A DNA stretch of 64,000 nt from Actinomycetota bacterium (GTDB taxonomy: Bacteria > Actinomycetota > Acidimicrobiia > Acidimicrobiales > Ilumatobacteraceae). Positions 43,452 through 63,902 of this stretch are shown here, piece by piece (the stretch's first letter is position 1; each line of letters starts with the position of its first letter). The stretch spans positions 1,727 through 65,726 of the forward strand of contig JAUSLQ010000102.1 of the NCBI GenBank assembly GCA_030645675.1, given 5' to 3'. The translations under genes and the position numbers were made by a program. The notes under the pieces were generated by a model. It was not told the DNA's origin. It searched no databases and saw nothing but the letters and a program-made list of their open reading frames with translations.

Positions 43452-45203
43452 ATGGCTGACCGGCGCGAGATCGACTGGCTCGGATGGGGCACCCGGTTCG
43501 TGCTGTTCACCGGGAAGGGCGGTGTCGGCAAGACGACCATCGCCTCGGCGTCCGCCGTGGCACTGGCCGATGCCGGGCGGCGGGTGCTGCTCGTGTCCAC
43601 CGACCCTGCGTCGAACCTCGCCGACGTGTTCCAGATGGTCACCGGCGAGCATCCGCGCCCGATCCCGGAGGTGCCGGGTCTCGACATCATGGACCTCGAC
43701 CCCCATGCGGCTGCCGACGACTACCGATCCAGGGTGATCACCCCGTACCGCGGCGTGCTTCCAGACGCCGAGGTCGCCGCCCTGGAGGAGAAGCTCGCCG
43801 GCGCCTGCACCGTCGAGGTCGCCGCCTTCGACACCTTCGCCCGCCTCCTCGCCGACCCTGGTTCGATCAGCGACTACGACCATGTGGTGTTCGACACCGC
43901 ACCCACCGGGCACACCTTGCGACTGCTCAGCTTGCCTGCGGCCTGGTCGGACTACCTGGGCGACAACCCCGATGCAACGAGCTGCCTGGGCCCATTGGCT
44001 GGGCTGCAGGACGACCGCCCGATCTACGCAGCAGCAGTCGCCACGCTCAAGGACCCGCTCAGCACCACCGTCGCGCTCGTTGCCCGAGCCGATCGGGGCG
44101 CATTGGCCGTCGCCGCCGCGGCAGCTGAGGAGTTGCACCAGCTCGGCATCGATCATCAGATGCTGATCGTCAACGGTGTGCTCACCCACCCGCTCGCCGG
44201 CGACCCTGTCGCGTCCGCGTACTCACACGTGCAGCAGCGAGCACTCGGGACGATCCGCGAGAACCTGGCCTGCCTCCCAACCGCCGTCGTCCCGCTGATC
44301 GCGCTCGATCTGGTCGGTGTCGCGGCACTTCGGCGACTCGCCTCCGGACCGACGGGTGGCGCGACCAGTCGTGATGCTCGGCCCGCACCGGTCGCGGCGC
44401 CCCGCATCACCGCCCTCGTCGACGACCTCGAGCGCGGCGGTCATGGGGTGATCCTCGTCACCGGCAAGGGTGGTGTGGGCAAGACCACCGTCGCGGGCCT
44501 CGTCGCCGTCGAACTCGCCCGGCGCGGTCACCGCGTCCACCTGTCGAGCACCGATCCGGCAGGCCACGCCGCCGCGACGGCTGCGGACCTGCCACACCTC
44601 ACGACCAGCGCGATCGACCCGGAGGCCGAAACCCAGCGATACACCGACGGGCGCATGCACGCCGCCGCCCGCAACGGCCTCGACCAGGCCCACCTCGACC
44701 TGCTCGCCGAGGACCTCCGCTCGCCGTGCTCGCAGGAGGTCGCTGTGTTCCAGGCGTTTCACCGGCTCCTCGGGCGCGGTCGCAACGAGTTCGTGGTGAT
44801 CGACACCGCACCCACCGGCCACACCCTGTTGCTGCTCGATGTCACCGGCGCCTACCACCGTCAAGCAATCGAAGGCGTCGGCCAACAGTTCCGGCACGTC
44901 GTCACCCCGTTGATGCGACTCCGAGACCCCGACTACTCGAAGGTGCTGATCGTCGCGCTCGCCGAGACCACCCCGGTCGCCGAGGCCAAGGACCTGCAGG
45001 ACGAACTCCGTCGAGCCGGCATCGAGCCCTACGGCTGGATCGTCAATGCCACCCTCGTCGACTCGGGCACCGCCGATCCGATCCTCGAGTCGCGAACTGA
45101 GCTCGAACAAGCACAACTGGCACGAGTCGCGACCATTGCCCCGCGCTTGTGGACGCTGCCGTGGAACCCCGAGATCGCATCAGCCGAGCCGACCGTTCCA
45201 TGA
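43452..45203 (+). CDS. arsA: Arsenite-stimulated ATPase ArsA (two-halves architecture)
   Basis: 583 aa with two P-loops, FTGKGGVGKTT and VTGKGGVGKTT. Each is followed by STDPA and DTAPTGHTL(R)LL signal-transduction motifs. Confidence 0.9.
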   Translation: MADRREIDWLGWGTRFVLFTGKGGVGKTTIASASAVALADAGRRVLLVSTDPASNLADVFQMVTGEHPRPIPEVPGLDIMDLDPHAAADDYRSRVITPYRGVLPDAEVAALEEKLAGACTVEVAAFDTFARLLADPGSISDYDHVVFDTAPTGHTLRLLSLPAAWSDYLGDNPDATSCLGPLAGLQDDRPIYAAAVATLKDPLSTTVALVARADRGALAVAAAAAEELHQLGIDHQMLIVNGVLTHPLAGDPVASAYSHVQQRALGTIRENLACLPTAVVPLIALDLVGVAALRRLASGPTGGATSRDARPAPVAAPRITALVDDLERGGHGVILVTGKGGVGKTTVAGLVAVELARRGHRVHLSSTDPAGHAAATAADLPHLTTSAIDPEAETQRYTDGRMHAAARNGLDQAHLDLLAEDLRSPCSQEVAVFQAFHRLLGRGRNEFVVIDTAPTGHTLLLLDVTGAYHRQAIEGVGQQFRHVVTPLMRLRDPDYSKVLIVALAETTPVAEAKDLQDELRRAGIEPYGWIVNATLVDSGTADPILESRTELEQAQLARVATIAPRLWTLPWNPEIASAEPTVP

Positions 45204-46121
45204 GTTCAGAGGCCCTCGACCTCGGCGAGCGACACCGAGACGTTCTCGACGCACGTGCCGGCGCAGCAGGAAGCGGACGGCCAGGACGAACAGGTCGATG
45301 ATCAGCAGGCCCACCAGCACGATCAGCAGCAGCGGACGCTGACGCGTGACGTCGCTCGCTGTCACGGCTGGGCCAGCGCCCGAGGCAGTGACCCGCCACT
45401 CGATCTCGCCGAGCGACGGCCCAGGCACCTCTGCCGACACCACCTGCTTCCAGGTCTGTCCTGCCCCGATCACGCCCGGATCATCCAGCGCCAACGTGGC
45501 CAGCAGGTCGTTGCTGCGCACCGCTGCTCCGGCCAACGACACGTGCGAGTAGGGCGCTGTGGACCGGTTCCTCACCGTCACCGTCACCTCGTAACGAGCA
45601 GGCCCGCCCAGGCTGGTGCGGGCCCGCTCCAGGGCGCCCAACGGCGCCGGCCGGGCAACGATCGACACGACCAGCGGGTCGCTCGTCGCCGGACCATCCG
45701 TCAAGGGTTCCACCGGGTGCCCCACCAGGGTGAAGGGCGCCACCGCGATCTCGTCGTTGAGGCGGCTGGAGACACGGACGACGCATGGGCAGCCCACCGG
45801 GGGCACCTCGATCGGCACTTGCACCACCGTCGGCGTGCCGTCGTCGTCCAGCCGCAGGCCGCGGCCGGCCACCATGTTGCAGTCCGCCGACCCGCGACGC
45901 GCCTCGTTCCCGCACACGGTGATCGTGACCGAAGCGGCTTGGAAGCCGTCGATGGTGAGCACCACCCGCTCGTCGGGCGCCAGCTCGGTGTCGGCCATCG
46001 TCACGGTGGGCCCACTGGTGGTGGGCTGCGCATCGGCACCGGCGGCCGCGCCGAGCACCACGCACGACACGAGCAGCGCGAGCAGCGGAACCCACCTGAG
46101 CGGTGACACCAGCGAGTTCAC
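45180..46121 (-). CDS. Secreted, C-terminally TM-anchored beta-rich protein of unknown function (last gene of the surface cluster)
   Basis: GTG at 46121 overlaps the upstream stop as GTGA. The signal peptide is WVPLLALLVSCVVLGAAAGADA. It has two Cys pairs and a C-terminal anchor LLLIVLVGLLIIDLFVLAVRFLLRRH. It overlaps the arsA 3' end convergently by 24 nt. Confidence 0.55.
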   Translation of the reverse strand: MNSLVSPLRWVPLLALLVSCVVLGAAAGADAQPTTSGPTVTMADTELAPDERVVLTIDGFQAASVTITVCGNEARRGSADCNMVAGRGLRLDDDGTPTVVQVPIEVPPVGCPCVVRVSSRLNDEIAVAPFTLVGHPVEPLTDGPATSDPLVVSIVARPAPLGALERARTSLGGPARYEVTVTVRNRSTAPYSHVSLAGAAVRSNDLLATLALDDPGVIGAGQTWKQVVSAEVPGPSLGEIEWRVTASGAGPAVTASDVTRQRPLLLIVLVGLLIIDLFVLAVRFLLRRHVRRERLGVARRGRGPLNSWNGRLG

Positions 46122-47275
46122 GCGGTCTGCGGTTCGCGTGCGCGTTCGGTGTCGCCGGCCACGCTGGCCTCGATGATCGGCGCATGGCGACCGGCAGGAA
46201 CCACGGGGCCACGGTGCCGCCGGTGTGCCCGGCGGGCGAGCACGAACAGGATCACGAGCAGCAGCAGCAGCAGGACGGCGACCGGCGGAACGAACGTGAG
46301 GTCGTCGGCACTCGCCGCCCCCGTCGCGCCGCCCTCGACGGCAAGGGGCGTCACACTCACGGTGGCCGAACCGAGGAACAGCGCCGGCACGTCGCGCACA
46401 TCGGCAGTGACGGTGATCCCTTCGCCGGGCAGCAGCTCCGGCACGTCGGGCAACGCGATCGTCTGTTCACCGATGCCGAAGGGGCCGCCGATCGTCAGCG
46501 TCGCCGAGCCCCCGAGGCGCACGTTGCCGTGGTTCTCGATGCGGTAGGTCACCCGTGCCGAGCCGCCCATGGGGTTCAGCGCGTGGTCGTAGTCGGTCTC
46601 CACGTCGGCGACAGCCAACTCCGGCGAGATCGGGCCGCTCACCCGCACGTACAGCCGGCTACCGATGCGTCGGTCCAGTGTCACCACCTGGCCCTGGTCG
46701 CCGGTGCCCAGCGTCTCGCTGGAGGCGAGGATGGCTCCGGTGTGGTCGCCGGGGCGAGCGTCGACCGGGATGGTGATCGTGATCGGCATGGTCACCTGCG
46801 TGCCGGCCGGCACGGTGATCAGCTCCTGCGGGAACGCCACCCAGGTGCCGACGTCCACCGGCACCTCGTCGCCCGGCAGCAGATCGAACTGGCCTGCGTC
46901 GTTGTTGAACGCGTCTGTCGCGTACACCCGGAACGTCAGCTGCACGGTGCCGTAGTTGTACAGGGTCACCGCATCCTCCAGCACGGCGCCCGGGTCGGCG
47001 ACGTAGGTGAGGTCGGGCCGGTTGCCGGTTCCGTCGGGGTCGGCGGAACCCGCCGGTGCCAGCGCCCAGCTCTCCACCACTTCGGTCGGCGGTGCCTGGC
47101 CGTCCGGCGCCGTCCCGTCGGGTGCGGGTGGCGCTGGTGCAGGGGGCGTCGTCGCGGTGTTCGCGGGCCCGACCATGGGCGGCCCCGCCGACGCAACGGA
47201 CGCCGGCAGCGCAGACGCGAGGAAGGCCGCCGCCGAGGTGGTGGCCAGGAGGACGAGACGTCGCCAGGTGTTCAT
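46118..47275 (-). CDS. DUF916/DUF3324-like cell-surface protein (WxL-locus partner type), C-terminal TM anchor
   Basis: ATG at 47275 (MNTWRRLVLLATTSAAAFLASALPASVASA). The pattern YVADPGAVLEDAVTLYNYGTVQLTFRVYATDAF...GQFDLL...WVAFPQELITVPAGTQVTMPITITIPVDARPGDHTGAI resembles DUF916. A second beta domain follows, then the anchor VAVLLLLLLVILFVLARRAHRRH. Confidence 0.55.
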   Translation of the reverse strand: MNTWRRLVLLATTSAAAFLASALPASVASAGPPMVGPANTATTPPAPAPPAPDGTAPDGQAPPTEVVESWALAPAGSADPDGTGNRPDLTYVADPGAVLEDAVTLYNYGTVQLTFRVYATDAFNNDAGQFDLLPGDEVPVDVGTWVAFPQELITVPAGTQVTMPITITIPVDARPGDHTGAILASSETLGTGDQGQVVTLDRRIGSRLYVRVSGPISPELAVADVETDYDHALNPMGGSARVTYRIENHGNVRLGGSATLTIGGPFGIGEQTIALPDVPELLPGEGITVTADVRDVPALFLGSATVSVTPLAVEGGATGAASADDLTFVPPVAVLLLLLLVILFVLARRAHRRHRGPVVPAGRHAPIIEASVAGDTERAREPQTA

Positions 47276-47373
47276 GGGTTGCGGTGCAGCTTTCGTGGGG
47301 AAACACCGGGGTGGTGTGGAGCGCAGGAGACGCCCCACACCACCTTCGGCGTGTTGGTTGACAGGAGTGCGGG

Positions 47374-49161
47374 TCAGATGACCGTGAAGGTCAGCGTCCC
47401 TGCATAGGTGCCGGAGCGGGCGCTCACCGGGATCAGCAGCTTCACCCGGGCATCGAACTTGGCGATGCCGAGGCCAGCGCCGCTGGCGGCCGAGGAGAGC
47501 ACCTTCGGCGTGGCGAGGCCGGCAGCCGTGTCGGGCAGCACCGGCGCACCGGCCACCACGGTCTGGTCGTAGCCAGCCGAGGTTGCGTCGGAGTCGTCGG
47601 TCACGACCGGGGTCCAGCCCAGGTAGTTGCCGCTGAACGACGAGCCGCCACCGGCGACGACGAAGTCGCTCATCGTGCCGTTGACGGTCCAGCCGGTGTC
47701 GGTGTCACGGGTGTCCGAGACGGTGACCTGGTTCAGGCGGCCGCTGGCCGTGTAGTACTGACCGGCGAGCGGGCCGCTGGTGACCAGCTGGCTGGTGCCC
47801 AGGTCGAGACCACAGCGGGTCGGGTACGTCGGGCTGGACGGGCTCGGGTAGTTGACGAACTGCGGGTCGGGCAGGCCGGCCGAGTTCAGCGGGGCGGTGC
47901 CCACCTGGTCGGCGGAGGCCAGCTCGGCGGGCAGCGACGCGAAGCCGGGCGAGGCGGGCTCGATCGGCAGCGCACCGTACACACCGCAACGCTGGGTCAG
48001 CACCAGGGCGCCGGCCGGGCGAACCACGGTCACGTCCTGGATGATGTTCTGCGCGGCGAGCGGCACGGCCGAGACCGACGCCGAGGTGCCGACGTACGGG
48101 GCCGGGTGGGTCGGGGTCACGGTGTACGTGTAGTTCGTGCCGGCGGTGAGGCCGGTCACGTCAAACGTCGTCGCGCCGGCGGCTGCCGTGAACGGCGAAC
48201 CGGCCACGACGGGGCTGACGGCGATCGTGTAGCCGGTGGGGGCCACACCCGTGGGCGTCACCCAGTTGAGCGTGACGGCACCAGTGCCGGGCACCGCAGC
48301 CAAGCCCGTCACCGCAGGGCGGGCGCCCGGGTTTGGGGTACCACTGACCACGTTCGACACCGCGCTGCCACCGACCGAGTTGGTCGCGATCAGCGACACG
48401 GCGTACGACGTGCCGTTGACCAGGCCGGTCAGGGTGAACGAGGTGGCGCCGGCCGCGAGGGGCAGGGTCACCGTCGGGCCAGCGGTCGGGACGGCCGTCA
48501 CCGTGTACGACGTGGTGGCGGGCACCGACGTCGAGTGGGTGAACGTGCCGGCCAGCGTCTGATCACCAGCGGTCAGGGTGCCACCGAGGACCGGAGCCGC
48601 AGGGACTGCGCCGTAGGCGTAGTCGATCTGGGCGGGGCCACCCGCAGCGTTGGTCGTGATGGTGATCGGGGCCGTCCAGTAGCTGACGGTCGCGCCGGCG
48701 AGGGTGCAGGCGAAACCGACCGTGTAGGCACCGGCGGGAACGAACCCGGGGGCGAACACGTTCATGGCGACTGCGGGGATGCCGGTGATGAGGCCGGTGG
48801 TGACCGCGGTGTTCTTGTTGATGACCGGGGTACCAGCGGCGAACATCGGCTGGGTGAAGGCAGCGCCGCCCGAAACCGGGCCCGATGCGTTGTAGGTCAG
48901 GGTTGCCGGGTCGACCGACGAGGCAACCATGAACGTCTGCCACTTGTAGCCACCCGACGCCGAGTCACCGGGGCACACGGCACCGGAGGGGGGCAGGAGG
49001 GTGATGCTGGTGGCACTGTTGCCGGTGAGCGGCGACACCGTGGCGGCGCCGTTGGCCGGGGTACCGGGCGGCAGTGCCGCAGCACTGGACGCGAGAAGGG
49101 CGACAGAGGCGATGGCAAGTGTTGCCACCCCTGCTGCGACCTTGGTGATGGTGGTACGCAT
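47374..49161 (-). CDS. Secreted protein: N-terminal unassigned two-Cys domain (paralog A), two fibronectin type III-like repeats, C-terminal WxL-like domain
   Basis: ATG at 49161 (MRTTITKVAAGVATLAIASVALLASSAAA). FN3-like segments are TSYTVTAVP...LTGLVNGTSYAVSLIATN and TGYTIAVSP...VTGLTAGTNYTYTVTP. The C-terminus reads VSDTRDTDTGWTVNGTMSDF...GNYLGWTPVV...GTYAGTLTFTVI, resembling a WxL domain. Confidence 0.65.
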   Translation of the reverse strand: MRTTITKVAAGVATLAIASVALLASSAAALPPGTPANGAATVSPLTGNSATSITLLPPSGAVCPGDSASGGYKWQTFMVASSVDPATLTYNASGPVSGGAAFTQPMFAAGTPVINKNTAVTTGLITGIPAVAMNVFAPGFVPAGAYTVGFACTLAGATVSYWTAPITITTNAAGGPAQIDYAYGAVPAAPVLGGTLTAGDQTLAGTFTHSTSVPATTSYTVTAVPTAGPTVTLPLAAGATSFTLTGLVNGTSYAVSLIATNSVGGSAVSNVVSGTPNPGARPAVTGLAAVPGTGAVTLNWVTPTGVAPTGYTIAVSPVVAGSPFTAAAGATTFDVTGLTAGTNYTYTVTPTHPAPYVGTSASVSAVPLAAQNIIQDVTVVRPAGALVLTQRCGVYGALPIEPASPGFASLPAELASADQVGTAPLNSAGLPDPQFVNYPSPSSPTYPTRCGLDLGTSQLVTSGPLAGQYYTASGRLNQVTVSDTRDTDTGWTVNGTMSDFVVAGGGSSFSGNYLGWTPVVTDDSDATSAGYDQTVVAGAPVLPDTAAGLATPKVLSSAASGAGLGIAKFDARVKLLIPVSARSGTYAGTLTFTVI

Positions 49162-49226
49162 CGAAGCGTGGGTCCTTTCGAGAGTGGGGAATCGAAGTTG
49201 GTGACGGGTGGGTGATCGGTGCGACA

Positions 49227-50414
49227 TCAGAGCTGGCCGCTGATGAGGCTGCCCTTGGTGGCGGTGGAGCCGCAGCTCGGGTGCACCAAGAAGCCGAAGG
49301 CGTTGATCGTGGCGGTCGCCGAGCACAGCGCCGACGTGGGGCCCGAGAACAAGGTCTTCAGGTCGTCGTTGCCGAAGGCGCTGGTGATCACCGAGGTCGG
49401 GAACACGTTGTAGACGTTGCGCCCGAAGACGGAGTCGCCGAAGAAAGCGGCAGCGGGCACCAGGTTCGGGGCAACGCCAGTGACCGGCGAGCCGAGGTTG
49501 ACGCCCGAGCCGTTGTTGCTGATCGAGCCCATCAGTGCGGCTGCGTTGTTGCCGGGGGCGACACCGTTGGCCTTGGACACGAACGAGCCGGCCGAGAAGC
49601 CGATGACGACTTGGTCACCGGAGTGTCCGGGCAGGGCAGCGAGGGCATCGCCACGAGCCTGCAGTTCGTCGCCGTGGTTCTCCTGGGCGCGACCGAGCAG
49701 CGCGTTGCACTCGGTGGTGGCCGTGTTCTCCGCCGAAGCCGAGGCCGTTGTCACCGTGTTCCAGAAGGCGTAGGTGCCCGAGCTGGTCTGGATGCCGCAG
49801 GGCACGATGCGCACGCCGGCGATCACCTGCGGACCGGTCGTGAACAGCGAGGTCAGCTCGGCGCGGGTCAGGCTGGCGACCGGGCTGCCGGCAGCCCGGT
49901 AGTAGGCGAAGCTCATTCCGTCACGGCCGAACGGGATGTAGGTGAGGTCGGTGCCGGTGTCGCCGCTGGCCGGGCCGCTCGACGAACGAGCGAACTCCAC
50001 CAGACCGGAGACGTCCTGCACGCCACCGCAGGCGGCGCTGCCGTACAGCGTGCCGTCGATCGCACGGCTGAGCGCCCGGCGACCGCCAGTGGAGCCGTTC
50101 GGGCGGGCGAACGTCGGCCCCCCGACCTTGGGGGTGATGCAGTTGTCGGACACGCCGGCGGGCGGGGTGGCGTCGAACGAGATCACCTGGCGGGCACCCG
50201 AGGCGGTGCTGCTGTGGATCGGGGTGTAGTAGTCGCCGTTCGTGAAGCCCGTCATCGCGTTCATGACGTCTTGCGTTGTGTCAGAGCCGACGCCCACGGC
50301 AGCGGTCAGCTGCTTCGGGTCGGCCGAGGCGGAGCTGCCGGTGAAGGCGGCTCCCAGGCTGGCGGCGAGGGCGACGGTGAGAGCGAGTCGCTTCGTGGTG
50401 GATGAGTGCAACAT
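49227..50414 (-). CDS. Secreted periplasmic-binding-protein-like (type 2 PBP / PstS-superfamily-like) protein
   Basis: ATG at 50414 (MLHSSTTKRLALTVALAASLGAAFTGSSASA). GVGSDTTQDVMNAM and later FGRDGMSFAYY and VVIGFSAGSF resemble PBP_like_2 proteins. The assignment is tentative. Confidence 0.5.
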   Translation of the reverse strand: MLHSSTTKRLALTVALAASLGAAFTGSSASADPKQLTAAVGVGSDTTQDVMNAMTGFTNGDYYTPIHSSTASGARQVISFDATPPAGVSDNCITPKVGGPTFARPNGSTGGRRALSRAIDGTLYGSAACGGVQDVSGLVEFARSSSGPASGDTGTDLTYIPFGRDGMSFAYYRAAGSPVASLTRAELTSLFTTGPQVIAGVRIVPCGIQTSSGTYAFWNTVTTASASAENTATTECNALLGRAQENHGDELQARGDALAALPGHSGDQVVIGFSAGSFVSKANGVAPGNNAAALMGSISNNGSGVNLGSPVTGVAPNLVPAAAFFGDSVFGRNVYNVFPTSVITSAFGNDDLKTLFSGPTSALCSATATINAFGFLVHPSCGSTATKGSLISGQL

Positions 50415-50562
50415 GGTGGTGGGTGCGGTCCCTTCAGGTGACGGTGTGCCCGGTCTCCAGACCGGACGACGGTGATGGTGACAGCCCAACCTGACGGCCA
50501 CTTGGCCTCCAGATGAACGCTCGACGCCCGGATCGAGGGTTCATGTGGCGGACACCGTGCGG

Positions 50563-51979: not shown

Positions 51980-52942
51980 TCACAGGAGGTTCGGCAGCAG
52001 GCGGGCGAACTCGCCGGACGTGGCGAGGCCGACGAGCAGCATCGTGGGCAGGAACACGACCCACGTCTGGGCGTGCCCCCAGCGATGCCACGACCACACG
52101 ACGGCGACCGACAGCGCGATCATCGCCTGCAGCCAGAACGCGAGCACCCACAGCGTGCGGTTGTCGCCGGCCATCATCCGTTCCTCGGCGGGAAGCGCCG
52201 AGAAGCTCAGCACACGGGCAGCACCGATCACGGGTTCACCGACGATCTCGGCGTCGACGCGGAGTACTCCGTCGGGCAGGAAGGCGCTGCCGGCGGCGGT
52301 GACCAGCAGTAGCCGCGAGCCGCCGGACGCGAGCGTCGCGGGCGCCGGGTCGCCTTCCCGGCGCACACCGATGACGGAGTACTCGAACGTGCCCTGGCCG
52401 GTGGTGACGCGGATGAGGTCGTTCTCCTGCAACTCGCCGAGGCGCGCGAACGGCCCGCCGAACGCGGCACGCCGGCCGTACACCACGCTCGAGCCCACCT
52501 GGCCGGGCAGCGGGGTGTCGCGGCGATGCCCGGGCCCGTCGAACAGCACACTCGCGCTCGTGCCCTCGCCGATCACCTCGCTCACGCCGATCGAAGGGAT
52601 CTCGAGGAAGGTCACCGGCGTGCCCGCCGCGAGTGCGTAACCGGCTCTGTCGACGGGGCCGATCGCCGCCGTACCCTTTGCCAGCTGCTCACGGAACGCG
52701 TCGAACCGGCGGCCCTGGGCCGCTCGGTGCTGCAACGAGCTGAGCAGCACGAGTTGGATCAGCAGTGTCGCAGTCAGCACGAACACCAACAGCAACATGG
52801 CGCGCACCAGCTGCAGCCGAGGGCTCAGCGGCGGCGCCTCGGCGCGGCTCACCGCCGTCGGGCGAGCGCCGCTGCGCGGGCGCAGACGCGCCCACACCGA
52901 GGTCGGTTCCGACCGCGGCGGAAGCGTGGCCGTGGCGGTCAT
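51980..52942 (-). CDS. Sortase-fold (class E-like) membrane protein apparently lacking the catalytic His and Cys; extra C-terminal TM segments
   Basis: ATG at 52942 overlaps the upstream stop as ATGA. LEIPSIGVSEVIGEGTSASVLFDGPGHRRDTPLPGQVGSSVVYGRRAAFGGPFARLGELQENDLIRVTTGQGTFEYSV aligns by eye with class E sortases (GPGHYPGTALPGQxGNxAxAGHRxTYGAPFxxLxxLxxGD). AGHR is replaced by YGRR, and LTTCHP by LLLVTAAGS. Confidence 0.6.
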   Translation of the reverse strand: MTATATLPPRSEPTSVWARLRPRSGARPTAVSRAEAPPLSPRLQLVRAMLLLVFVLTATLLIQLVLLSSLQHRAAQGRRFDAFREQLAKGTAAIGPVDRAGYALAAGTPVTFLEIPSIGVSEVIGEGTSASVLFDGPGHRRDTPLPGQVGSSVVYGRRAAFGGPFARLGELQENDLIRVTTGQGTFEYSVIGVRREGDPAPATLASGGSRLLLVTAAGSAFLPDGVLRVDAEIVGEPVIGAARVLSFSALPAEERMMAGDNRTLWVLAFWLQAMIALSVAVVWSWHRWGHAQTWVVFLPTMLLVGLATSGEFARLLPNLL

Positions 52943-57385: not shown

Positions 57386-59127
57386 GCCGGCTCCTTGCTG
57401 GAGAAGCGACGCCAGGCCAAGGCCGGTGTGAGCACAAGGCCCAACGTCAGCGCGATGACGAGCAGCAGCAACACGGTCGAGCCGCCCCACCCCGACGGCT
57501 GGGGAAGCACGGTGGTGGCAATGGCGCCCGCGGCGCCGCCGGTCGCAGTGCCGCCACCCGTGGGTGTGCCCGACGAACCGCCAGCGCACAGCCCCGTGTC
57601 GGCGTCGCAGCCCTGGCCGCCGGTCCCGGCGTCGACTCCGCCGTTCGAGCCCGGCAGGGTGGTGCCGGTGGCGGCGCCCGGCACCGAGCCCCCTGCAGGC
57701 GTGGAGCCCGCGGCGGGGGTGCTGCCACCGGCCGGGGTGCTGCCACCGGCAGGCGTGGTGCCACCGGCAGGCGTGGTGCCGCCGGTCACCGGCCCGGCGA
57801 GCACATCGGTGGGTACGTTCGACAGGCCGCCGGTGCCGTTGGGGCACTGGCTGACACTGCCCTGCTGATCGCACGCCTGTGGTTGTGGCGCGTTCTGGGC
57901 GAGCACGTTGGTGCCGTTGGCGGAGAACGTGGGGTTGTCGCACGAGGCGATGTCGATGTCTTGCACGACCACGCCGGGGATCTTGCGGATCTGGTCGAAG
58001 CTCGCCTCCACCAGGTTGATCGGCATCGGCGAGTAGCCCACCGACGCCCACTGCTGCTGCGCCTGGCACAATGCGTAGTAGGCGAACGCCCCCACGGTGG
58101 CGCCCTTGTCCTCGTTGAACTGGCCGGCCACCTTCGTCGGCACGATCAGGTAGGAGTACGACGACAGCTGGTAGCTGCGCGGGTCGGTGTCGTTGTACAC
58201 GCCCTCGAGCTGCTGGGTGAGATACACCGTCGGGTCGGCCTCGTTGGTGTTGATCCGCGCCTGCAACAGCGACACCGCCACGTTGTCCGGCGTGGGCTCG
58301 GTGTAGTAGCCGGCCTCGTTGAGCACCTTCGCCACTGGGAACTGGGCGTTCAGTGCGTACGAGTAGTTGACGTAGCCGATCGCACCCTCGGCGAATCCCT
58401 GGCTGACGTACCCGGCCACGCCGAGGTCGCCGTTCTGGGCGATCATGCCCGGGATCGTTGGATAGAACGACGTGTTACCGCAGGCCGGCGCACGACCCGA
58501 CCGGTTGCAGAACTCGGTCCACAGCGCCCCGTGCTCCGCGATCATCCACTTCGTGAACTGGGCGCTCGAACCCGACCCGTCGGAACGCACCACCGGCACG
58601 ATCGTGCGGGCCGGCATCGTCAGGCCCGGGTTGTCGGCTGCGATCGCCGGGTCGTTCCACGTGGTGATGACGCCGGTGAAGATCTTGGCGACGTTCTCGC
58701 CCGACAGCCGCAGGTTGGTGACCCGCTTGCCGTTGATCTGCAGGTTGTACATGAACGACGTGCCACCGGCGGTGACCGGGATGTACGCGTAGCTGCCGGG
58801 GGCCGGGTTCTCCGGCGCCGACCCATCTTCCGGCGAGAACTGGAACGGGATGTCGGAGGCCGCGAAGTCGACCGTGCCGTTCAGGAAGTTCCTACGCCCC
58901 GCCGTCGAACCACTGGGGTTGTAGTCGACCGTGATGCCGAACTGGCGCACGTTGACGCGCATCGCGTCGATCGCGTTCGCGGCCCACGACGAGCCCTCAC
59001 CGGAGATCCGCTGATAGCTGAACGATGCCGATGCGATCGGCGGTGAGCCGCCACCGACGAACGACCCGGCGACCAGCGTGGCCGAGACCGCGAACACGAC
59101 GCGGCGCAGGAGTCGAGGCACGCTCAC
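57382..59127 (-). CDS. pstS: Phosphate ABC transporter substrate-binding protein PstS with a Gly/Thr/Pro linker and C-terminal TM anchor
   Basis: GTG at 59127 after AAGGAG; it overlaps the pstA stop as GTGA. ISGEGSSWAANAI, DFAASDIP, VTAGGTSFMYN and RSDGSGSSAQFT are PstS-like. The C-terminus has (GGTTPA)n repeats, LPQPSGW, and a TM segment plus WRRFSSK. Confidence 0.85.
   Translation of the reverse strand: MSVPRLLRRVVFAVSATLVAGSFVGGGSPPIASASFSYQRISGEGSSWAANAIDAMRVNVRQFGITVDYNPSGSTAGRRNFLNGTVDFAASDIPFQFSPEDGSAPENPAPGSYAYIPVTAGGTSFMYNLQINGKRVTNLRLSGENVAKIFTGVITTWNDPAIAADNPGLTMPARTIVPVVRSDGSGSSAQFTKWMIAEHGALWTEFCNRSGRAPACGNTSFYPTIPGMIAQNGDLGVAGYVSQGFAEGAIGYVNYSYALNAQFPVAKVLNEAGYYTEPTPDNVAVSLLQARINTNEADPTVYLTQQLEGVYNDTDPRSYQLSSYSYLIVPTKVAGQFNEDKGATVGAFAYYALCQAQQQWASVGYSPMPINLVEASFDQIRKIPGVVVQDIDIASCDNPTFSANGTNVLAQNAPQPQACDQQGSVSQCPNGTGGLSNVPTDVLAGPVTGGTTPAGGTTPAGGSTPAGGSTPAAGSTPAGGSVPGAATGTTLPGSNGGVDAGTGGQGCDADTGLCAGGSSGTPTGGGTATGGAAGAIATTVLPQPSGWGGSTVLLLLVIALTLGLVLTPALAWRRFSSKEPA
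57699..57790. repeat. 18-bp in-frame tandem repeat (about 4-5 units) encoding the (G-G-[ST]-T-P-A) linker of PstS
   Basis: Direct reading: ggggtgctgccaccggcc / ggggtgctgccaccggca / ggcgtggtgccaccggca / ggcgtggtgccgccggtc. Confidence 0.85.
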
Positions 59128-60479
59128 GAGCTCTCCTTCGACGAGTAGGGAGGGGCTCCAGCGGACAGAGCGATGGGGGCGACCGTCACGTCGCTGGAGG
59201 CGGCGGCGAGGCGGCGGGCCTCGATTCGCTGCAGGTCGCGACTCGATCGCGCCACGGTTCCACGAGCTTGCCGCTTGGAGAGCTGACCCGCCGGGCGACC
59301 GCCCAGCACTCGGGCGATGGAGAACAGGATGAGCACCAGCACCATCAGCACGGCCGCTGTGCCGAAACCGCGTGCCATCTGCTCGGGCTGCCCCGAGCGC
59401 ACCAGCATGTATGCCGTGAGCGGCAGCGAGACCATCGGTCCCTCGTTCGGATTGAGGTTCATTGAAGATGTGAAGCCGGCGGTGAGCAGCACCGGCGCGG
59501 TCTCTCCCACGCCACGGGCGATGCCGAGGATCACGGAGGTGGTGAGGCCCGAGCGGGCGGTGGGCAGCACCACGTGCCAGACGGTGCGCCACTGCGGCGC
59601 CCCGAGCGCCGCCGAGGCCTCGCGCAGGTTGCCGGGCACGAGGCGCAGCACCACGTCGGCGGAGCGGATCATGATCGGAAGCGTCATGATGCTGATCGCG
59701 ATCGACGCCGCGAGGCCCGAGCGTTCGAAGCCGAGGATCAGGACCCAGGTGGCGAAGATGAACAGGCCGGCCAGGATCGACGGCAAGGCGGTCATCGCGG
59801 TCACGACCGTGCGCACCAGCGACGTCAGGCGGCTACGGGTCTCGTTGAGGTACACCGAGCAGGCGATTCCGAGCGGCACCGTGATGACGAGGGAGATCAG
59901 CGTCATGATCAGCGTGCCGACGATGGCGTGCGAGATGCCACCCTTGGTCAGCGGATCGAGCGGGCCGGTGCTGCTGAGGTCGTCGACGTAGAAGTTCGTG
60001 TGCACCAGCGCCTTCACGCCGCGGATGAACACGTAGACGATCACGGAGAACAGCGCGCACAATGCCACCACGGCCGCCGAGGCCATCAGCACGGTCATCA
60101 CCCGGTCGTACACGGCGGGGCGGTTCTCGGTGAGCGACACCACCACCGCGTAGGTGAGGAGGAACACGAGGAAGAAGACGGCGAGGAAGCCGATCACGCC
60201 TTCCATCGACGTGAACCGGCCGAACAGCAGCATCGTCGTCGACAACGCACTGACCAGCGAGCCCAACAGCGGCAGCAACTCGTTCCGCGACCACTTGCGC
60301 ACGGCCCGCCGCACCGCAGGAGGCGCCTCGGGTCCCGGGTGCCCGGCGAGCACCGTCAATGGTGCGGGGTCGTCGGCGAACCGCAGCTCCCCGAACTCGC
60401 CCTCGAACGCCTCGTCGAACGCGTCGCCCATCGAGCGGCTACCGCCGTCATCGGCACTCTTGGTGAGGGTGGAGGTCAT
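59124..60479 (-). CDS. pstA: Phosphate ABC transporter permease PstA
   Basis: 451 aa with KGGISHAIVGTLIMTLISLVITVPLGIACSVYLNE and the EAA-loop region EASAALGAPQWRTVWHVVLP. The start overlaps the pstC stop by 4 nt. Confidence 0.9.
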   Translation of the reverse strand: MTSTLTKSADDGGSRSMGDAFDEAFEGEFGELRFADDPAPLTVLAGHPGPEAPPAVRRAVRKWSRNELLPLLGSLVSALSTTMLLFGRFTSMEGVIGFLAVFFLVFLLTYAVVVSLTENRPAVYDRVMTVLMASAAVVALCALFSVIVYVFIRGVKALVHTNFYVDDLSSTGPLDPLTKGGISHAIVGTLIMTLISLVITVPLGIACSVYLNETRSRLTSLVRTVVTAMTALPSILAGLFIFATWVLILGFERSGLAASIAISIMTLPIMIRSADVVLRLVPGNLREASAALGAPQWRTVWHVVLPTARSGLTTSVILGIARGVGETAPVLLTAGFTSSMNLNPNEGPMVSLPLTAYMLVRSGQPEQMARGFGTAAVLMVLVLILFSIARVLGGRPAGQLSKRQARGTVARSSRDLQRIEARRLAAASSDVTVAPIALSAGAPPYSSKESS

Positions 60480-61534
60480 GCTTCGCTGCTCGCTCCGCTA
60501 CGCGAACGCGCCACGAACCATGATGCGGTGAAGTTCACGACGAGGGTGACGGCGAACAGCGCCAAGCCGGCGGCCATCAGTGCCGACAGGCCGAACCCCG
60601 ACGACTCGAAGGTGAGCAGTGCGATGTGGCTCGACACCGAGTTGCTGCCGGCCTCGAGGACGTGGAAGTTGAGGTCGAACCGAGGCGAGATGATCATCAC
60701 CACGGCGATCGTCTCGCCCAACGCCCGACCGAGGCCCAGCATCGTGCCGCCGATGATGCCGCCGCGGCCGAACGGCAGCGCCACCACGCGGATCATGCCC
60801 CAGCGGGTGGAGCCCAGTGCGTACGCCCCTTCGCGCTCTCCCAAGGGCACCTGCGAGAAGACTTCGCGCATGACCACACACTGGATCGGCATCACCATCA
60901 TCGCGACGACGACGCCTGCGATGAACGTTGATGCGGTGTACACCGACTCGCTGGACAGCGGGCTGTTCGGGTCGGCGCGGGCAACGTCGAGAAAGGGGAT
61001 CCACCCGAACCACGCGTTGATCCACCGGGACAGGCCGACGATCTTGCCCTGCAGCAGGTATGCCCCCCACAGCCCGTAGACGACGCTGGGCACTGCCGCC
61101 ATCAGGTCGACGAGTGCGATCAGCCACGAGCGCAACCACTTCGGGGCCACCTCGGTGATGAACAGCGCGGTGCCCATCGAGATCGGCAGCGCGATGGCGA
61201 CTGCCACGAGAGCGATCAGCACCGTACCGAGCATGATCGCGGCGATGCCGAACTCGCCACGATCGGGCTGCCACACGGAAGTGGTGAGGAAGGAGAAGCC
61301 CGACGACTTGAGCGCCTGGCTGGCCTGGATCGCCAGGAACACGCCGACGGCGACCATGATCGCCAGCACGAACGCGCCGCTGAACGAGGCCCCGCCGAAG
61401 AAGATGCGGTCGCCGCGGCCCTTGCGAACCACCAGCCTGCGCGGCGGTGCGGGCTCGCCAGTGGCGACATGGTCGACACTGGTCGTCTCGACAGCGCCGC
61501 CGGCACCGAACGCTTCCATGGTCACGCCAGCCAT
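60476..61534 (-). CDS. pstC: Phosphate ABC transporter permease PstC
   Basis: 352 aa with FGIAAIMLGTVLIALVAVAIALPISMGTALFITEVAP and GEREGAYALGSTRWGMIRVVALPFGRGGIIGG, typical of PstC. Confidence 0.9.
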   Translation of the reverse strand: MAGVTMEAFGAGGAVETTSVDHVATGEPAPPRRLVVRKGRGDRIFFGGASFSGAFVLAIMVAVGVFLAIQASQALKSSGFSFLTTSVWQPDRGEFGIAAIMLGTVLIALVAVAIALPISMGTALFITEVAPKWLRSWLIALVDLMAAVPSVVYGLWGAYLLQGKIVGLSRWINAWFGWIPFLDVARADPNSPLSSESVYTASTFIAGVVVAMMVMPIQCVVMREVFSQVPLGEREGAYALGSTRWGMIRVVALPFGRGGIIGGTMLGLGRALGETIAVVMIISPRFDLNFHVLEAGSNSVSSHIALLTFESSGFGLSALMAAGLALFAVTLVVNFTASWFVARSRSGASSEA

Positions 61535-62403
61535 GCGGCGAGCACCACCAACATGATGACCATTGCGGCGGTCAGCAGCAGCACGTCGATGTGCATGGCC
61601 GCAGACCAGAACGAGCGCTTCGGAGCGCGGGGGGCTTGCGCCTGAGCGATGGAGAGCTGCCCGGGCACGTGGCTCAAGCCCCCGGCGGCGAGGCGCTCGT
61701 CGATCATCGTCGCGAACACGGCGGCGAACACGCGAGCGAACGCCTCGGCGTCGATGCTGACGGCCGCCGGGGACTGCCCGGCCAGACCCTCCGTCGGCGG
61801 AGCTGGTGTGGCCGCCGCGACGAGGGGCATCGCGGCGGCCACGAGCGGTGCTGCCGGTACGAACGGTTCAGCGGTGCTGACCGGCGGCGGCAGGAAAGGC
61901 GGGAGAGGCGGGAGAGGCAGGCGAGGCAGGAGAGGAACGAACGGAAGCGGGGCGTCCGGAGCCACCAGACCGAGTGGCGCCGGAGGAGGCTCGACGGCCG
62001 CTGTCAGATCCACCGGCTGCACCACCGGTCGCAGCACTGGTTGTGCGACCGGTTGCGCCACTGGTTGCGCCACTGGTTGCGCGACCGGTTGCGCGGTGGG
62101 CCGTGGAGCGGCGTCCGCTCTCGCCAGCATCACGTCGGCGGCTCGCCGCGCAGCTGCGACCGCGGCCGACGCCTCTGCTCGGGCCTGTGCCAAGGCCTGT
62201 GTCAACGCTTGCCGGCGCTCGTCGACCAGCGGTTGGATTCGGGCGCGCAGCTCGGCGCAGGCGTCGTCCGGTTGGCTCGCTGCCGACGCCTTCTCGGCAT
62301 CGGCTGCCTCCTGCAACGCAGCGCGCAGTTGCAGCGTCAGAACTGCGATGGCCGCACGTGACGACAACGGCGCGGCGCTGGGAGCGAGTGCATCACTGTG
62401 CAT
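61522..62403 (-). CDS. Tail-anchored hypothetical protein: N-terminal coiled coil, (AQPV)n repeat, Pro-rich region, C-terminal TM
   Basis: ATG at 62403 (MHSDALAPS). It overlaps the pstC start by 13 nt. The C-terminal anchor is IDVLLLTAAMVIMLVVLAAWLA. No family recognised. Confidence 0.5.
   Translation of the reverse strand: MHSDALAPSAAPLSSRAAIAVLTLQLRAALQEAADAEKASAASQPDDACAELRARIQPLVDERRQALTQALAQARAEASAAVAAARRAADVMLARADAAPRPTAQPVAQPVAQPVAQPVAQPVLRPVVQPVDLTAAVEPPPAPLGLVAPDAPLPFVPLLPRLPLPPLPPFLPPPVSTAEPFVPAAPLVAAAMPLVAAATPAPPTEGLAGQSPAAVSIDAEAFARVFAAVFATMIDERLAAGGLSHVPGQLSIAQAQAPRAPKRSFWSAAMHIDVLLLTAAMVIMLVVLAAWLA
62047..62106. repeat. 12-bp in-frame tandem repeat x5 (cYggttgYgcSR) encoding (AQPV)n
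   Basis: Direct reading of 62047-62106. Confidence 0.85.
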
Positions 62404-62905
62404 CAGGTGCCTCCGCGGCCCGGCCGTCGAGGGGTTGTCGACGGTTCTCCGCCACGCGCTGGCGAGCACCTTCGAGGATGCGCTTCACTTCGGCGTCGGC
62501 ATCGGCCTTCACCTGCGCGATGGTCGCCTGGAACTCCGCTTCCATCCGGGCGAGCGCCGCACGCGACTCGTCCAGCTGGGCGCGCAGCGCCTCGCGCACC
62601 TCTGCATCGCGGGTCGCCGCGTTTCGCTCGGCCACCGCCGCGCGCATCCGCGCAGCGGCGATCTCGTGCTCCAACCTGGCGCGTTCGCGTTCGACACCGG
62701 CAGAGGCGTCGTCCGTCCAACGCAGGGTCGCCGCGGCGTCGCTCGCTCCCCTTGCGCCAAGCCCGCCACCGTCGCCATCGCGATCCGCGTCATCGCGATC
62801 CGCACCATGGCTGCCGTTCAGCAGCACGCTGTGCCCAGCGGTGCCGTTGACACGCAGGCCGTGTGCGTGGGTGCCGTTCATCGAGATGCCGTTCGGTGCG
62901 CTCAT
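62393..62905 (-). CDS. Small coiled-coil protein of unknown function
   Basis: ATG at 62905 (MSAPNGISMNGTHAHG). The C-terminal roughly 100 aa are Ala/Arg/Glu-rich heptad-like (ERARLEHEIAAARMRAAVAERNAATRDAEVREALRAQLDESRAALARMEAEFQATIAQVKADADAEVKRILEGARQRV). The 3' end overlaps the next gene by 11 nt. Confidence 0.5.
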   Translation of the reverse strand: MSAPNGISMNGTHAHGLRVNGTAGHSVLLNGSHGADRDDADRDGDGGGLGARGASDAAATLRWTDDASAGVERERARLEHEIAAARMRAAVAERNAATRDAEVREALRAQLDESRAALARMEAEFQATIAQVKADADAEVKRILEGARQRVAENRRQPLDGRAAEAPDAQ

Positions 62906-62912
62906 GGCTCGC

Positions 62913-63902
62913 TCACACCACCCAGGCCAACATCGCGGTGACGGCAGCGAGCGAGCCGGCTGCCGCCACAGGAAGCGCCAGCCGGGGCGGAACGCCCCTG
63001 CTGCGCCGGCGGCGCACGACAGCACGGTCGGGCAGATCCTTGGCCCAGAACCGCACGAACGCGTCGTCGCCGTCAGCGCCGGTGATGTCGATGATGGGCG
63101 TCGCGTCTCGTCCGACAGGCACGACATCGAGCGCTGGTTCCGCCGGGGGATACGGCTTGGCGGCCAGATCCAACGTGACTGCGAGGTCGGCCAGCAGCTG
63201 CTGCAGATCGGCGTGTTCCCCGGTGTCGAGCACCGACATCAGATCAGTCGGCAGTCGTGAAGGTTGGGGTGACGGCAGTCGTGAAGGTTGGGGTGACGGC
63301 AGGTTCGACGCGTGCGACTCCCCTGCTTCGTGGGCGCCTGCGTCCGTCGCGGTGGTTGGGCCGGGTGGCGGCGGCGCAGCGGCGTGCTCGCCGGCTTCGA
63401 CAACGGCCAGGTGGTAGCGCACGTCGGCCCGCGCGTGGGCGTCGTCGATGACCGCACGGCCCTCCTGGACCTCGTCGTGCCACCACTCGTCGAGCAGTGC
63501 GGTCAGTCGCCGCTGCGCGGCCACGCCGTCGAGGTCTGCAGTCTCGAACGCCTGGTCGATCACCGTCGCCAGCGACTCGATGTCGTCCGTCGTGCGCACC
63601 ACCGACACGCCCAGCGCTGCGATGTCGCGGCTGTTCAGCCGGAACGGGCCGGCGAGCGCGGGTTGCGGCGTGCGCACGTCCAGCGCCGGGGGACGTTGCC
63701 CGATGCTGGAACGCGGCGATGTCCGGCCGCCGTGGACCACCACGGCAGGAACCTCGCCCACCAAGGCCGCAGCCCGTGCAGCCGCAGCATCGGCGATCTG
63801 CGCCACCTCCGCATCCACCTCTGCGCGCCGCTGGAGGATCGACCGTTGGGCATCCATGAACTGCCTCAGCAAACGCTGGTGGATGCCGGCGAGGTTGGCC
63901 AT
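62913..63902 (-). CDS. Tail-anchored hypothetical protein (start uncertain; may begin at 63989 or beyond the window)
   Basis: ATG at 63902 (MANLAGIHQRLLRQFMDAQRS), but the frame stays open to the window edge. It carries an internal LPSPQPSR x2 repeat. The C-terminal anchor is LALPVAAAGSLAAVTAMLAWVV. Confidence 0.45.
   Translation of the reverse strand: MANLAGIHQRLLRQFMDAQRSILQRRAEVDAEVAQIADAAAARAAALVGEVPAVVVHGGRTSPRSSIGQRPPALDVRTPQPALAGPFRLNSRDIAALGVSVVRTTDDIESLATVIDQAFETADLDGVAAQRRLTALLDEWWHDEVQEGRAVIDDAHARADVRYHLAVVEAGEHAAAPPPPGPTTATDAGAHEAGESHASNLPSPQPSRLPSPQPSRLPTDLMSVLDTGEHADLQQLLADLAVTLDLAAKPYPPAEPALDVVPVGRDATPIIDITGADGDDAFVRFWAKDLPDRAVVRRRRSRGVPPRLALPVAAAGSLAAVTAMLAWVV
63251..63302. 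repeat. 24-bp perfect tandem duplication (gcagtcgtgaaggttggggtgacg x2, plus a partial third copy)
   Basis: Direct reading. On the minus strand it encodes LPSPQPSR twice. Confidence 0.9.

Follow-up and report, generated by a model that had tools for sequence, protein, structure and literature searches.

Why should the genes of a phosphate importer lie among those of anchored surface proteins? The question is raised by a 64,000-nucleotide stretch of an Ilumatobacteraceae genome (Actinomycetota, Acidimicrobiia; contig JAUSLQ010000102.1 of assembly GCA_030645675.1; hereafter the window, G+C ~70%), in which 15 consecutive minus-strand genes, from position 45180 to the window end, include pstC, pstA, pstS and pstB. 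In PstSCAB systems the order is pstS-C-A-B(-phoU), whereas this cluster runs C-A-S...B, with four conserved genes between pstS and pstB. A preliminary description, made from the window alone, had seen here a Pst operon split open and surrounded by surface proteins. We propose instead, with a probability of about 0.6, that the cluster is a distinct, ancient actinobacterial high-affinity Pst importer encoded together with dedicated envelope accessory proteins.

We named the genes g15 to g1 in the direction of transcription, with starts set by start-codon inspection; transmembrane (TM) segments and signal peptides were taken from a hydropathy scan, and domains from Pfam and NCBIfam. Codon-position GC (GC1>GC2, GC3 0.77–0.91) confirmed the 15-gene minus-strand run that had been claimed for this region. 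The first gene does not begin at 63902, as had been proposed: its start is the equivalent of base 64067, beyond the window, and was located on a 6.3-kb piece of the parent contig from the same genome (L082; gene at 385–1539), which differs from the window by one mismatch in 5871 nt. Nearly all of the earlier domain guesses were verified by Pfam and NCBIfam, namely the Pst proteins, the Sortase domain, two fn3 domains with a WxL-like domain, and WxLIP_PGBD (formerly DUF916).

Scanning one genome per GTDB species yielded 80 Acidimicrobiia loci, two complete chromosomes included, from Ilumatobacteraceae, Microthrixaceae, Iamiaceae and 'Acidimicrobiaceae'. As tblastn with all 15 window proteins shows, the order pstC-pstA-pstS-g9-g8-g7-g6-pstB-g4-g3-g2-g1 is kept in nearly all loci with enough flanking sequence, down to 45% identity in g9; the exceptions are one rearranged locus in which pstB and the sortase-like gene are inverted (L072) and one that departs from the order (L060). 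The linkage of the inserted genes to pst in related taxa, which the preliminary description had left to be checked, holds throughout: they always occur with pstC, pstA, pstS and pstB, in the Acidimicrobiia and in four Actinomycetes genomes. The 895-aa product of g9 (54698–57385) is identical to a 'hypothetical protein' of an Actinomycetota metagenome-assembled genome (MAG); its close relatives number more than 1000, none of which has a name or a Pfam domain. By exhaustive profile search its family comprises 1666 representatives at 50% identity, 749 of them with E<=1e-30, and reaches distant members in a Frankiales MAG, Micromonospora, Plantactinospora and Streptomyces aidingensis.

All four Actinomycetes contexts show the same succession, two BPD_transp genes, a long PBP_like_2 gene, a g9 homologue, three to five secreted proteins, a Sortase gene and an ABC_tran gene. 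By BLAST, the Streptomyces and Micromonospora cluster homologues share with the window proteins 62% identity for PstC, 53–59% for PstA, 47–56% for PstS (likewise C-terminally TM-anchored), 36–37% for g9, ~31% for g4 (one or two copies right after g9), 41–46% for the sortase-like protein (no cysteine there either) and 80–82% for PstB, which has no N-terminal extension in these genomes. What lies in between in the Actinomycetes are Ig-like proteins (Big_3_5) other than those of the window; among them, again, are one that bears an LxxTG signal (LANTG, LALTG) and one whose anchor is a plain TM segment. Behind pstB, Micromonospora has a protein sharing the WxL-like C-terminus of g3 (36–38% identity) and, after it, a homologue of the WxLIP protein g2 (39%); this pair is absent from the S. 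aidingensis cluster. Because the same core is found beyond the Acidimicrobiia, the cluster is, by gene content and order, a distinct and old actinobacterial operon type and not a local insertion, and the picture of a split-open pst operon gives way to that of an ancient operon whose core is kept across two classes. Among the database records, three MAG loci with an Acidimicrobiia-type cluster (L011, L037, L018) are labelled Bifidobacterium or Myxococcales, and these bins are probably mislabelled or contaminated.

The genes are tightly packed where the inserted and pst genes meet. Across related loci the median gap is −4 nt at six junctions in a row (pstC|pstA|pstS|g9|g8|g7|g6), and further on the medians are 33 nt for g6|pstB, 170 nt for pstB|g4, 65 nt for g4|g3 and 109 nt for g3|g2. 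The six 4-nt overlaps reported for the window proved exact, each reading ATGA or GTGA (46118–46121, 52939–52942, 53949–53952, 57382–57385, 59124–59127 and 60476–60479), and that between g2 and g1 is kept in 19 of 20 loci. The AAGGAG Shine-Dalgarno sequence of the next, overlapping gene is embedded in the last codons of the upstream gene. Judged by these overlaps and ribosome-binding sites, translational coupling extends from pstC to the sortase-like gene and joins most of the inserted genes to pst. At three gene ends (53949–53965, 57382–57398 and 59124–59140) the products terminate in ..SKE(P/S).. in most species; because the AAGGAG of the next gene sits there, the conserved C-termini reflect a translation signal rather than a protein motif.

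The transporter itself is readily recognized. PstC (60476–61534) and PstA (59124–60479) both reach the NCBIfam equivalog level, with TIGR02138 at 235.3 (cut-off 196.45) and TIGR00974 at 227.9 (cut-off 193.45), and PstC identity is 62–84% in related loci. At its N-terminus PstA carries a conserved extension, found in 97% of homologues, in which two additional TM helices are predicted. The PstB ATPase (50563–51930) scores 339.0 with TIGR00972, just below the cut-off of 343.2 and by far its best family match, and its ATPase part is 80% identical to PstB of the Streptomyces and Micromonospora clusters. Its 200-aa N-terminal extension, found in Acidimicrobiia only, consists of a conserved domain of ~120 aa, for which no relative was found in the PDB, and a variable linker of ~80 aa. 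No phoU or phoRP gene is present among the window open reading frames (ORFs) scanned.

PstS (57382–59127) matches PBP_like_2 with E 5e-36 and TIGR00975 at 186, below the cut-off of 205, and aligns to solved PstS structures with E 7e-25. The E. coli ligand residues T10, F11, S38, D56, R135, S139, G140 and T141 correspond to S47, W48, S74, D92, R181, S185, G186 and S187, and all eight positions are invariant or nearly so in 22 family sequences. Because these phosphate-ligand positions are kept, orthophosphate or a close oxyanion is the expected ligand. In contrast to the lipoprotein PstS of Gram-positive bacteria, this PstS has no lipobox; it has a signal peptide and is tethered by a conserved C-terminal TM anchor through a Gly/Thr/Pro stalk of ~110 aa (residues 438–551), which, by our estimate, could reach a few tens of nanometres at full extension. 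Sequence conservation in the TM anchors of PstS, g9 and g7 is compatible with contacts inside the membrane.

The gene preceding pstB, g6 (51980–52942), encodes a membrane protein of sortase fold. It matches the Sortase domain PF04203 at 52.1 bits (cut-off 26.6) over profile positions 1–84 of 125 only, aligns to sortases in the PDB with E ~2e-8, and scores 57 with the class E sortase model NF033747, far below the cut-off of 160. One N-terminal and two C-terminal TM helices are predicted, the latter ending in ..LPNLL. Alignment to 5uus, 4d70 and 5go6 places an arginine at the position of the catalytic histidine (..GRR.. against ..GHR..), and the protein contains no cysteine at all. At the TLxTC position, 52 species loci carry A, D, G, E or T (for example LVTAAG, LATADG, LVTVEG). 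Among the closest database homologues, 88 of 120 have no cysteine, alanine replaces the catalytic Cys in 116 of 118 and arginine the catalytic His in 115 of 115. Both residues are also missing from the Streptomyces and Micromonospora homologues, which have no cysteine at all.

Neither catalytic residue was found in any of more than 170 homologues examined. Lacking both the catalytic cysteine and the histidine, g6 as encoded cannot be a transpeptidase and is a pseudo-sortase; the earlier label 'sortase-like' holds for the fold and not for catalysis. Public records (NCBI, JGI) name the family 'class E sortase', 'sortase A' or 'LPXTG-site transpeptidase', which, given the residues present, looks like a systematic mis-annotation.

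Ending at the start of g6, g7 (52939–53952) codes for a secreted Ig-like protein of 337 aa, in which the signal peptide is followed by a two-Cys domain, a Thr/Gly stalk (residues 212–305), an LSATG motif, a hydrophobic tail and basic residues. A motif of the L(P/A)xTG type followed by a hydrophobic segment and basic residues is present at this place in 42–44 of 46 loci. The hydrophobic segment of a sorting signal is normally discarded, and conservation there is unusual; in g7 it is conserved as W..LLLVFGRM.ILLGRP, with FGR[MI] in 33 of the 46 loci. We infer a non-catalytic docking role of g6 toward this LPXTG protein. Cleavage of g7 by a housekeeping sortase encoded elsewhere in the genome is possible.

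Downstream of pstS lies g9, which the preliminary description had called PstS-like. Its product comprises a Cys-rich N-terminal region of ~340 aa, a PstS-like fold with insertions (about residues 348–770), a Thr-rich stalk (792–827) and a conserved Gly/Ala-rich TM helix followed by KRPRRR, a weaker anchor in the hydropathy scan. It has no Pfam match, and no known relative of the N-terminal region was found. An 82-sequence g9 profile matched 16 chains in the PDB, every one a PstS, which bears out the earlier assignment; the best was M. tuberculosis PstS-1 (E 4.9e-10, C-terminal lobe), followed by 7xg7 (E 2e-9) and 8ods (E 2e-8). A narrower 11-sequence profile gave marginal PstS matches (E 0.009). 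An AlphaFold model from the 11-sequence alignment had a pLDDT of 39.8, too low for a fold search, and matches of PstS hidden Markov models to g9 sequences were dominated by low-complexity stalks and discarded.

Residues 348–765 of g9 align to residues 64–377 of the cluster PstS family (hhalign, E 4e-4, probability 35%), with the motif pairs VYAPVALSG..IAFNI / YAYIPVTAGGTSFMYNL and LTPRLVAKLLTQSY / LSGENVAKIFTG. In this low-probability alignment the PstS sequence VVRSDGSGSS corresponds to PAGNSD---AA, with the GSG residues deleted; we hold with moderate confidence that g9 is without the anion-binding loop R-x-D-G-S-G-T/S. Taken together, the profile comparisons suggest that g9 has a PstS fold carrying insertions and lacking the phosphate loop, preceded by an unrelated N-terminal region.

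The other divergent relative, g4 (49227–50414), is a secreted 395-aa protein with no anchor and with no Pfam or NCBIfam match. Its family profile hits two PstS-like structures weakly (Sll0540, E 0.009; 1TWY, E 0.1) and the PstS family by hhalign with E 0.0012, and its actinomycete homologues (31% identity) carry weak PF12849 matches. The ligand positions are altered, with FARSS in place of FAASD and GIQTSSGT in place of VRSDGSGS of PstS. It is probably a second, more distant binding protein of the PstS/PBP_like_2 type.

What are the remaining exported proteins? A two-Cys domain of ~150 aa with invariant C76 and C168 is common to g8, g7 and the N-terminus of g3. The 248-aa g8 protein (53949–54695) joins it to a signal peptide, a TM anchor and a basic tail; an AlphaFold2 model of g8 is a beta-sandwich (pLDDT 83.5), and a Foldseek search of the PDB returned nothing significant, the best hit being generic beta-sandwich noise (E 0.016, TM-score <0.3). 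The 595-aa g3 protein (47374–49161) has a signal peptide, the two-Cys domain, two fn3 domains (E 1e-13) and a C-terminal WxL-like domain, whose 22.5 bits fall short of the cut-off of 25; WxL is matched by 4 of the 22 family members, and two GW(T) motifs and a C-terminal ..LDARLKLLIPV.. are conserved. Next comes g2 (46118–47275), a WxLIP-like protein of 385 aa. Its signal peptide is followed by a DUF916/PGBD domain (PF06030, 29.1; cut-off 27.3) and a second Ig-like domain, and the protein ends in a TM anchor with a basic tail. All 20 of its family members match WxLIP_PGBD (best E 6e-12), and the second domain matches fn3_5, DUF7507 or NPCBM_assoc, not DUF3324. The last gene, g1 (45180–46121), encodes a beta-rich protein of 313 aa with a signal peptide, a TM anchor and an Arg-rich tail.

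A WxL cluster has been defined as one WxLIP protein with at least two WxL proteins, typically one small and one large (PMC10599100). Because this cluster has one WxL-like protein only, its g3–g2 pair is, on domain matches, a WxL-like/WxLIP pair that makes the cluster a relative of WxL clusters and not a member. The accessory proteins as a whole fall outside characterised families, with only weak WxL/WxLIP and sortase-fold similarity, a point in favour of the preliminary description. The combination of signal peptide, stalk and C-terminal anchor claimed for nearly every non-transporter product fits PstS, g9, g8, g7, g2 and g1, but not g4, which has no anchor, or g3, which ends in the WxL-like domain.

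The three genes ahead of pstC had been taken for tail-anchored surface proteins as well. The coiled-coil, Pro-rich g15 protein (62913–64000, running off the window; 384 aa in full) and the 293-aa g13 protein (61522–62403, ending at the pstC start), which has QPVA/Pro repeats, do carry one C-terminal anchor each, but in the coiled-coil g14 protein of 170 aa (62393–62905; the gene shares 11 nt with g13) there is no TM segment. None of the three has a signal peptide, and they are cytoplasmic or tail-anchored rather than surface proteins; since g15 and g13 are tail-anchored without a signal peptide, their bulk would be cytoplasmic. Homologues of g15 were detected in about 25 loci. A g13-type tail-anchor gene lies directly upstream of pstC in distant lineages too, with the C-terminus ..DV.L....VIVLVVL.AW.(A/G). 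Ahead of pstC, S. aidingensis has a small DUF1508-like protein (L083 5295–5672) and Micromonospora a small protein without Pfam match (L085 5294–5830), which stand in the place of the Acidimicrobiia g13–g15.

Is the cluster under phosphate control? The pstB–g4 spacer (50415–50562) holds a conserved operator-like element. An inverted pair TGAAC-N17-GTTCA at 50511–50546 continues as phased 11-nt units, GTTCATCTGGA / GGCCAAGTGGC / CGTCAGGTTGG, from 50518 reading down, and is followed by a small hairpin in the 5' untranslated region and a GAAGGGA Shine-Dalgarno sequence. The block aTGAAC-N17-GTTCAtCT...GGCCA...GtCA is kept in about 36 of 38 aligned spacers. The palindrome occurs twice in the window against 0.02 expected; across the loci its full form is found after pstB only, and what the upstream promoter has in common with the spacer is the direct-repeat unit. 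We also considered a riboswitch or other RNA element in this spacer; RNAalifold gave no consensus structure and Rfam no match in the whole window, and a protein operator is preferred.

The preliminary description had guessed that PHO boxes lie upstream, beyond 64000, and a PHO-box-like operator is indeed found there, with the related element just described before g4. Aligned upstream regions of g15 homologues show five phased 11-nt direct repeats, then TACnGT and the start codon. In this genome the corresponding sequence, 65–145 nt past the window end (L082 308–387), reads GTTTCACGAAT-cAGCCACCCGG-TGAACATGTCGT-GTTCATCCGGC-GGTCAGGCGTC-ACTTCTACCGT..ATG, with the core pair GTTCATCCGGC GGTCAGGCGTC at L082 343–364. 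The direct-repeat unit of PhoP in Streptomyces has the consensus G(G/T)TCAYYYR(G/C)G (PMC2275107). The two core units agree with it at 10 of 11 and 7 of 11 positions.

The two-unit pattern GTTCAY-N5-[GCT][GT][TC]CA occurs 80 times in 1.2 Mb of loci against 13.3±3.4 in Markov simulations, with 6 of the 80 inside cluster genes. The others are concentrated at two places: counted strictly, the pattern is found ahead of the first gene in 22 of 43 loci, and 25 of 46 have it behind pstB. A TAnnnT box follows at +11 or +22 nt; the window has four matches against 0.5 expected, including 50503–50518. PHO-like TGAAC/GTTCA repeats are also present in the Streptomyces and Micromonospora loci. In three loci of Microthrixaceae/Iamiaceae type an OmpR/PhoB-family regulator gene, encoding a weak receiver domain and Trans_reg_C, stands beside the box within the upstream block (L023 2591–3463, L063 2871–3716, L073 3048–3551). 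Because GTTCAY repeats occur both at the first-gene promoter and in the pstB–g4 spacer, the two transcription units appear to share an operator type, most simply that of a Pho regulon. Extra two-unit boxes in the g3–g2 spacer or just after g1 (L010 21161, L040 22015, L043 16310) suggest further Pho-type promoters within or beyond the downstream block.

This gene content suggests a phosphate-uptake apparatus suited to a thick cell wall, whose parts may form one envelope-spanning assembly and may relay phosphate. Phosphate limitation would act through an OmpR/PhoB-type regulator to switch on both transcription units, and the products would gather around PstCA at the membrane and the wall. Its stalk would let PstS extend within the wall or past it, bind phosphate there and hand it back to the permease, with PstS and its paralogues possibly working at different wall depths. 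For g9 and g4 a role as additional receptors, as chaperones or as regulators is conceivable, perhaps with other ligands that contain phosphate. The dead sortase would dock the LPXTG protein non-catalytically and so tie the wall-facing Ig-like and WxL proteins to the transporter. In its fullest form this model describes an Actinomycetota-wide, Pho-controlled envelope machine in which a stalked PstS and two degenerate paralogues work with PstCAB while the dead sortase acts as a non-covalent LPXTG-docking adaptor coupling Ig-like, WxL-type and peptidoglycan-binding proteins. We advance that full version tentatively, as a possibility about which we are doubtful; if true, it would be the phosphate counterpart of the Isd haem relay and give a pseudo-sortase its first functional role.

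Several observations weigh against the proposal of an importer with dedicated accessory proteins. The pstB–g4 gap is about 150–170 nt, and g4, g3 and g2 are separated by 65–110 nt; given these wide spacers, the downstream block (g4–g1) is probably transcribed separately. The Ig-like proteins are not sequence-conserved between the classes, the g3 match to WxL lies under the Pfam threshold and there is no second WxL protein in the cluster. PstS and PstB both fall just under their equivalog cut-offs, and Streptomyces species normally also have a canonical pstSCAB; for these reasons the cluster may be a paralogous system, and its substrate need not be orthophosphate. The PHO-box assignment is a likeness to the Streptomyces consensus, and classical PHO boxes do not have the partial palindrome of the g4 element.

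The main rival holds that the accessory genes encode Pho-regulon surface proteins for particle adhesion, wall remodelling or starvation protection, which share an operator and a neighbourhood with pst and have no transport role. It draws on the g4–g1 block having its own spacers and operator, on the variation of the Ig-like proteins between classes, on the S. aidingensis cluster doing without the WxL/WxLIP pair, and on the WxL/WxLIP clusters of Firmicutes, which are adhesion and peptidoglycan-binding modules unrelated to transport (PMC9772566, PMC10599100). However, g9, g8, g7 and g6 lie between pstS and pstB with 4-nt overlaps in most species and are kept there across two classes, g9 and probably g4 are themselves PstS-fold proteins, and the TM anchors are sequence-conserved. 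The placement and overlaps of g9–g6 weaken this rival, which we rate as unlikely.

It is less probable still that the cluster is chiefly a multi-receptor importer, with PstS, g9 and g4 delivering different phosphorus ligands (organophosphates, polyphosphate, teichoic-acid fragments, arsenate) to a single PstCA and the surface proteins being secondary. What are probably three PstS-fold proteins, with differing ligand-site residues, would suit such a design, as would the sub-threshold scores of PstS and PstB, the ArsA and ACR3 genes next to the cluster and the example of M. tuberculosis, which has several PstS paralogues, two of them (PstS-1 and PstS-3, solved) among the structural matches. In Streptomyces-type genomes, moreover, the cluster is probably a second Pst-like system. 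Yet g9 appears to be without the whole anion loop and has an extra N-terminal region of ~340 aa, atypical for a docking substrate-binding protein; the canonical PstS of the cluster keeps all its phosphate ligands, and Pfam and NCBIfam scans found no enzyme encoded within the cluster that would release phosphate from complex substrates. A sortase-assembled pilus or fibre locus, polymerising Ig-like LPXTG proteins and by chance inside a pst operon, is suggested by the Sortase-domain gene adjoining an LPXTG Ig-like protein and by the fn3 and Big_3_5 domains, but we dismiss it: without catalytic Cys or His in more than 170 homologues there would be no polymerisation, no pilin motif or second pilin-type sortase was found, and the gene is conserved as part of pst across classes.

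How far does the importer with dedicated accessory proteins resemble systems already described? Novelty lies not in the core transporter, which is known, but in the conserved accessory module with its pseudo-sortase. In function the cluster would stand closest to the Isd haem relay and to the Znu/Hta accessory proteins of C. diphtheriae. With PstSCAB of the Pho regulon the cluster shares PstC and PstA equivalogs, best matches for PstB and PstS, the phosphate ligands and PHO-box-like 11-nt repeats before a −10 box. It differs in the two extra PstA helices, the PstB N-terminal domain (in Acidimicrobiia), the lack of an adjacent phoU, and two apparent degenerate PstS paralogues and a dead sortase as integral parts. 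In the Isd haem-uptake systems of Staphylococcus and Bacillus, NEAT receptors, sortase B and an ABC importer are encoded in one Fur-regulated locus. The cluster resembles Isd (reviewed in PMC7815599 and PMC10147376) in being a locus under nutrient-limitation control where an ABC importer occurs together with LPXTG-type binding proteins anchored to the wall and with a gene of the sortase family, the receptors (putative ones in the cluster) being placed across the wall. The systems differ in ligand and folds (haem and NEAT against phosphate and PstS-fold or Ig-like proteins) and in that the sortase of the cluster is dead.

A parallel from the same phylum is Corynebacterium diphtheriae, where ZnuE, ZnuF and ZnuG of the znu locus and the Hta proteins have a signal peptide with a C-terminal TM segment and positive tail or a sortase signal and modulate uptake (PMC12445094). 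Shared with these is an actinobacterial ABC importer locus with co-regulated, anchored, ligand-binding accessory proteins; Znu has other ligands and folds, and no pseudo-sortase, giant paralogue derived from a substrate-binding protein or WxL/WxLIP pair. The preliminary description knew of no such assembly, and we found no description in the literature of a Pst operon with these insertions, of the g9 family or of a Cys-less sortase family; the general design, however, has its precedents in Isd and C. diphtheriae Znu/Hta.

The downstream pair recalls the WxL/Csc clusters of Lactobacillales (PMC9772566, PMC10599100, PMC1534035), in which a large WxL-like protein is followed by a DUF916 protein with a C-terminal TM segment and an LPxTG protein lies nearby. 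In contrast to them, the cluster has one WxL-like protein, no small WxL protein and no detected DUF3324/HBD, its host is a high-GC actinobacterium, and a transporter is linked to the module. Firmicutes account for more than 91% of the known WxL proteins (PMC10599100, PMC9772566), and the WxL and WxLIP families there bind peptidoglycan (PMC9772566, PMC10599100). As for g6, the N-terminal two-thirds of the fold align to class E and D sortase structures (E ~1e-8), and like the housekeeping class E sortases of Actinobacteria it has an N-terminal TM helix and a neighbour gene with an LAxTG/LPxTG signal; unlike them it lacks the Cys nucleophile and catalytic His and has two extra C-terminal TM helices. 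A study of 'all five sortases' of Actinoplanes does not include the Cys-less type.

Phosphate is often limiting for the freshwater, marine, soil and activated-sludge Acidimicrobiia that carry the cluster, Ilumatobacteraceae and Microthrix relatives included. A Microthrix genome survey records simply that 'pstSCAB' is present (PMC8267870), and surveys that score 'pstSCAB present' or 'class E sortase' hide at least 8 extra conserved proteins and a non-enzyme sortase. Should the accessory proteins act in uptake, they would show how thick-walled monoderms run a high-affinity binding-protein system beyond the membrane, give functions to a 1,600-cluster family of 'hypothetical' proteins of 800–950 aa, and provide the first case of a pseudo-sortase. 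The culturable carriers Micromonospora, Plantactinospora and Streptomyces aidingensis make the cluster directly testable.

Genes beside the cluster have related themes. Directly downstream and convergent lies a gene for an ArsA-type anion-transporting ATPase (43452–45203, plus strand), followed by one for an ACR3/SBF-family permease (42210–43337, minus strand), so that an arsenic-resistance pair adjoins an importer of phosphate/arsenate type. Further along, the plus-strand gene at 37248–41018 encodes a protein of 1256 aa in which type I phosphodiesterase, calcineurin-like phosphoesterase and 5'-nucleotidase C-terminal domains are fused, an enzyme type that scavenges phosphorus; its upstream region showed no strict PHO-box pattern. 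ArsA, ACR3 and the fusion protein fit phosphate/arsenate physiology.

Elsewhere in the window, two very long plus-strand ORFs without Pfam match (12508–17202, 1564 aa; 27135–30758, 1207 aa) lie in its lowest-GC stretches (0.675–0.69). Between them, at 17221–23919 on the plus strand, an nSTAND1 NTPase gene (706 aa) and, after it, one for a Ser/Thr kinase-AAA_16-TPR protein of 1431 aa make up a signalling pair of STAND type that has no relation to the cluster.

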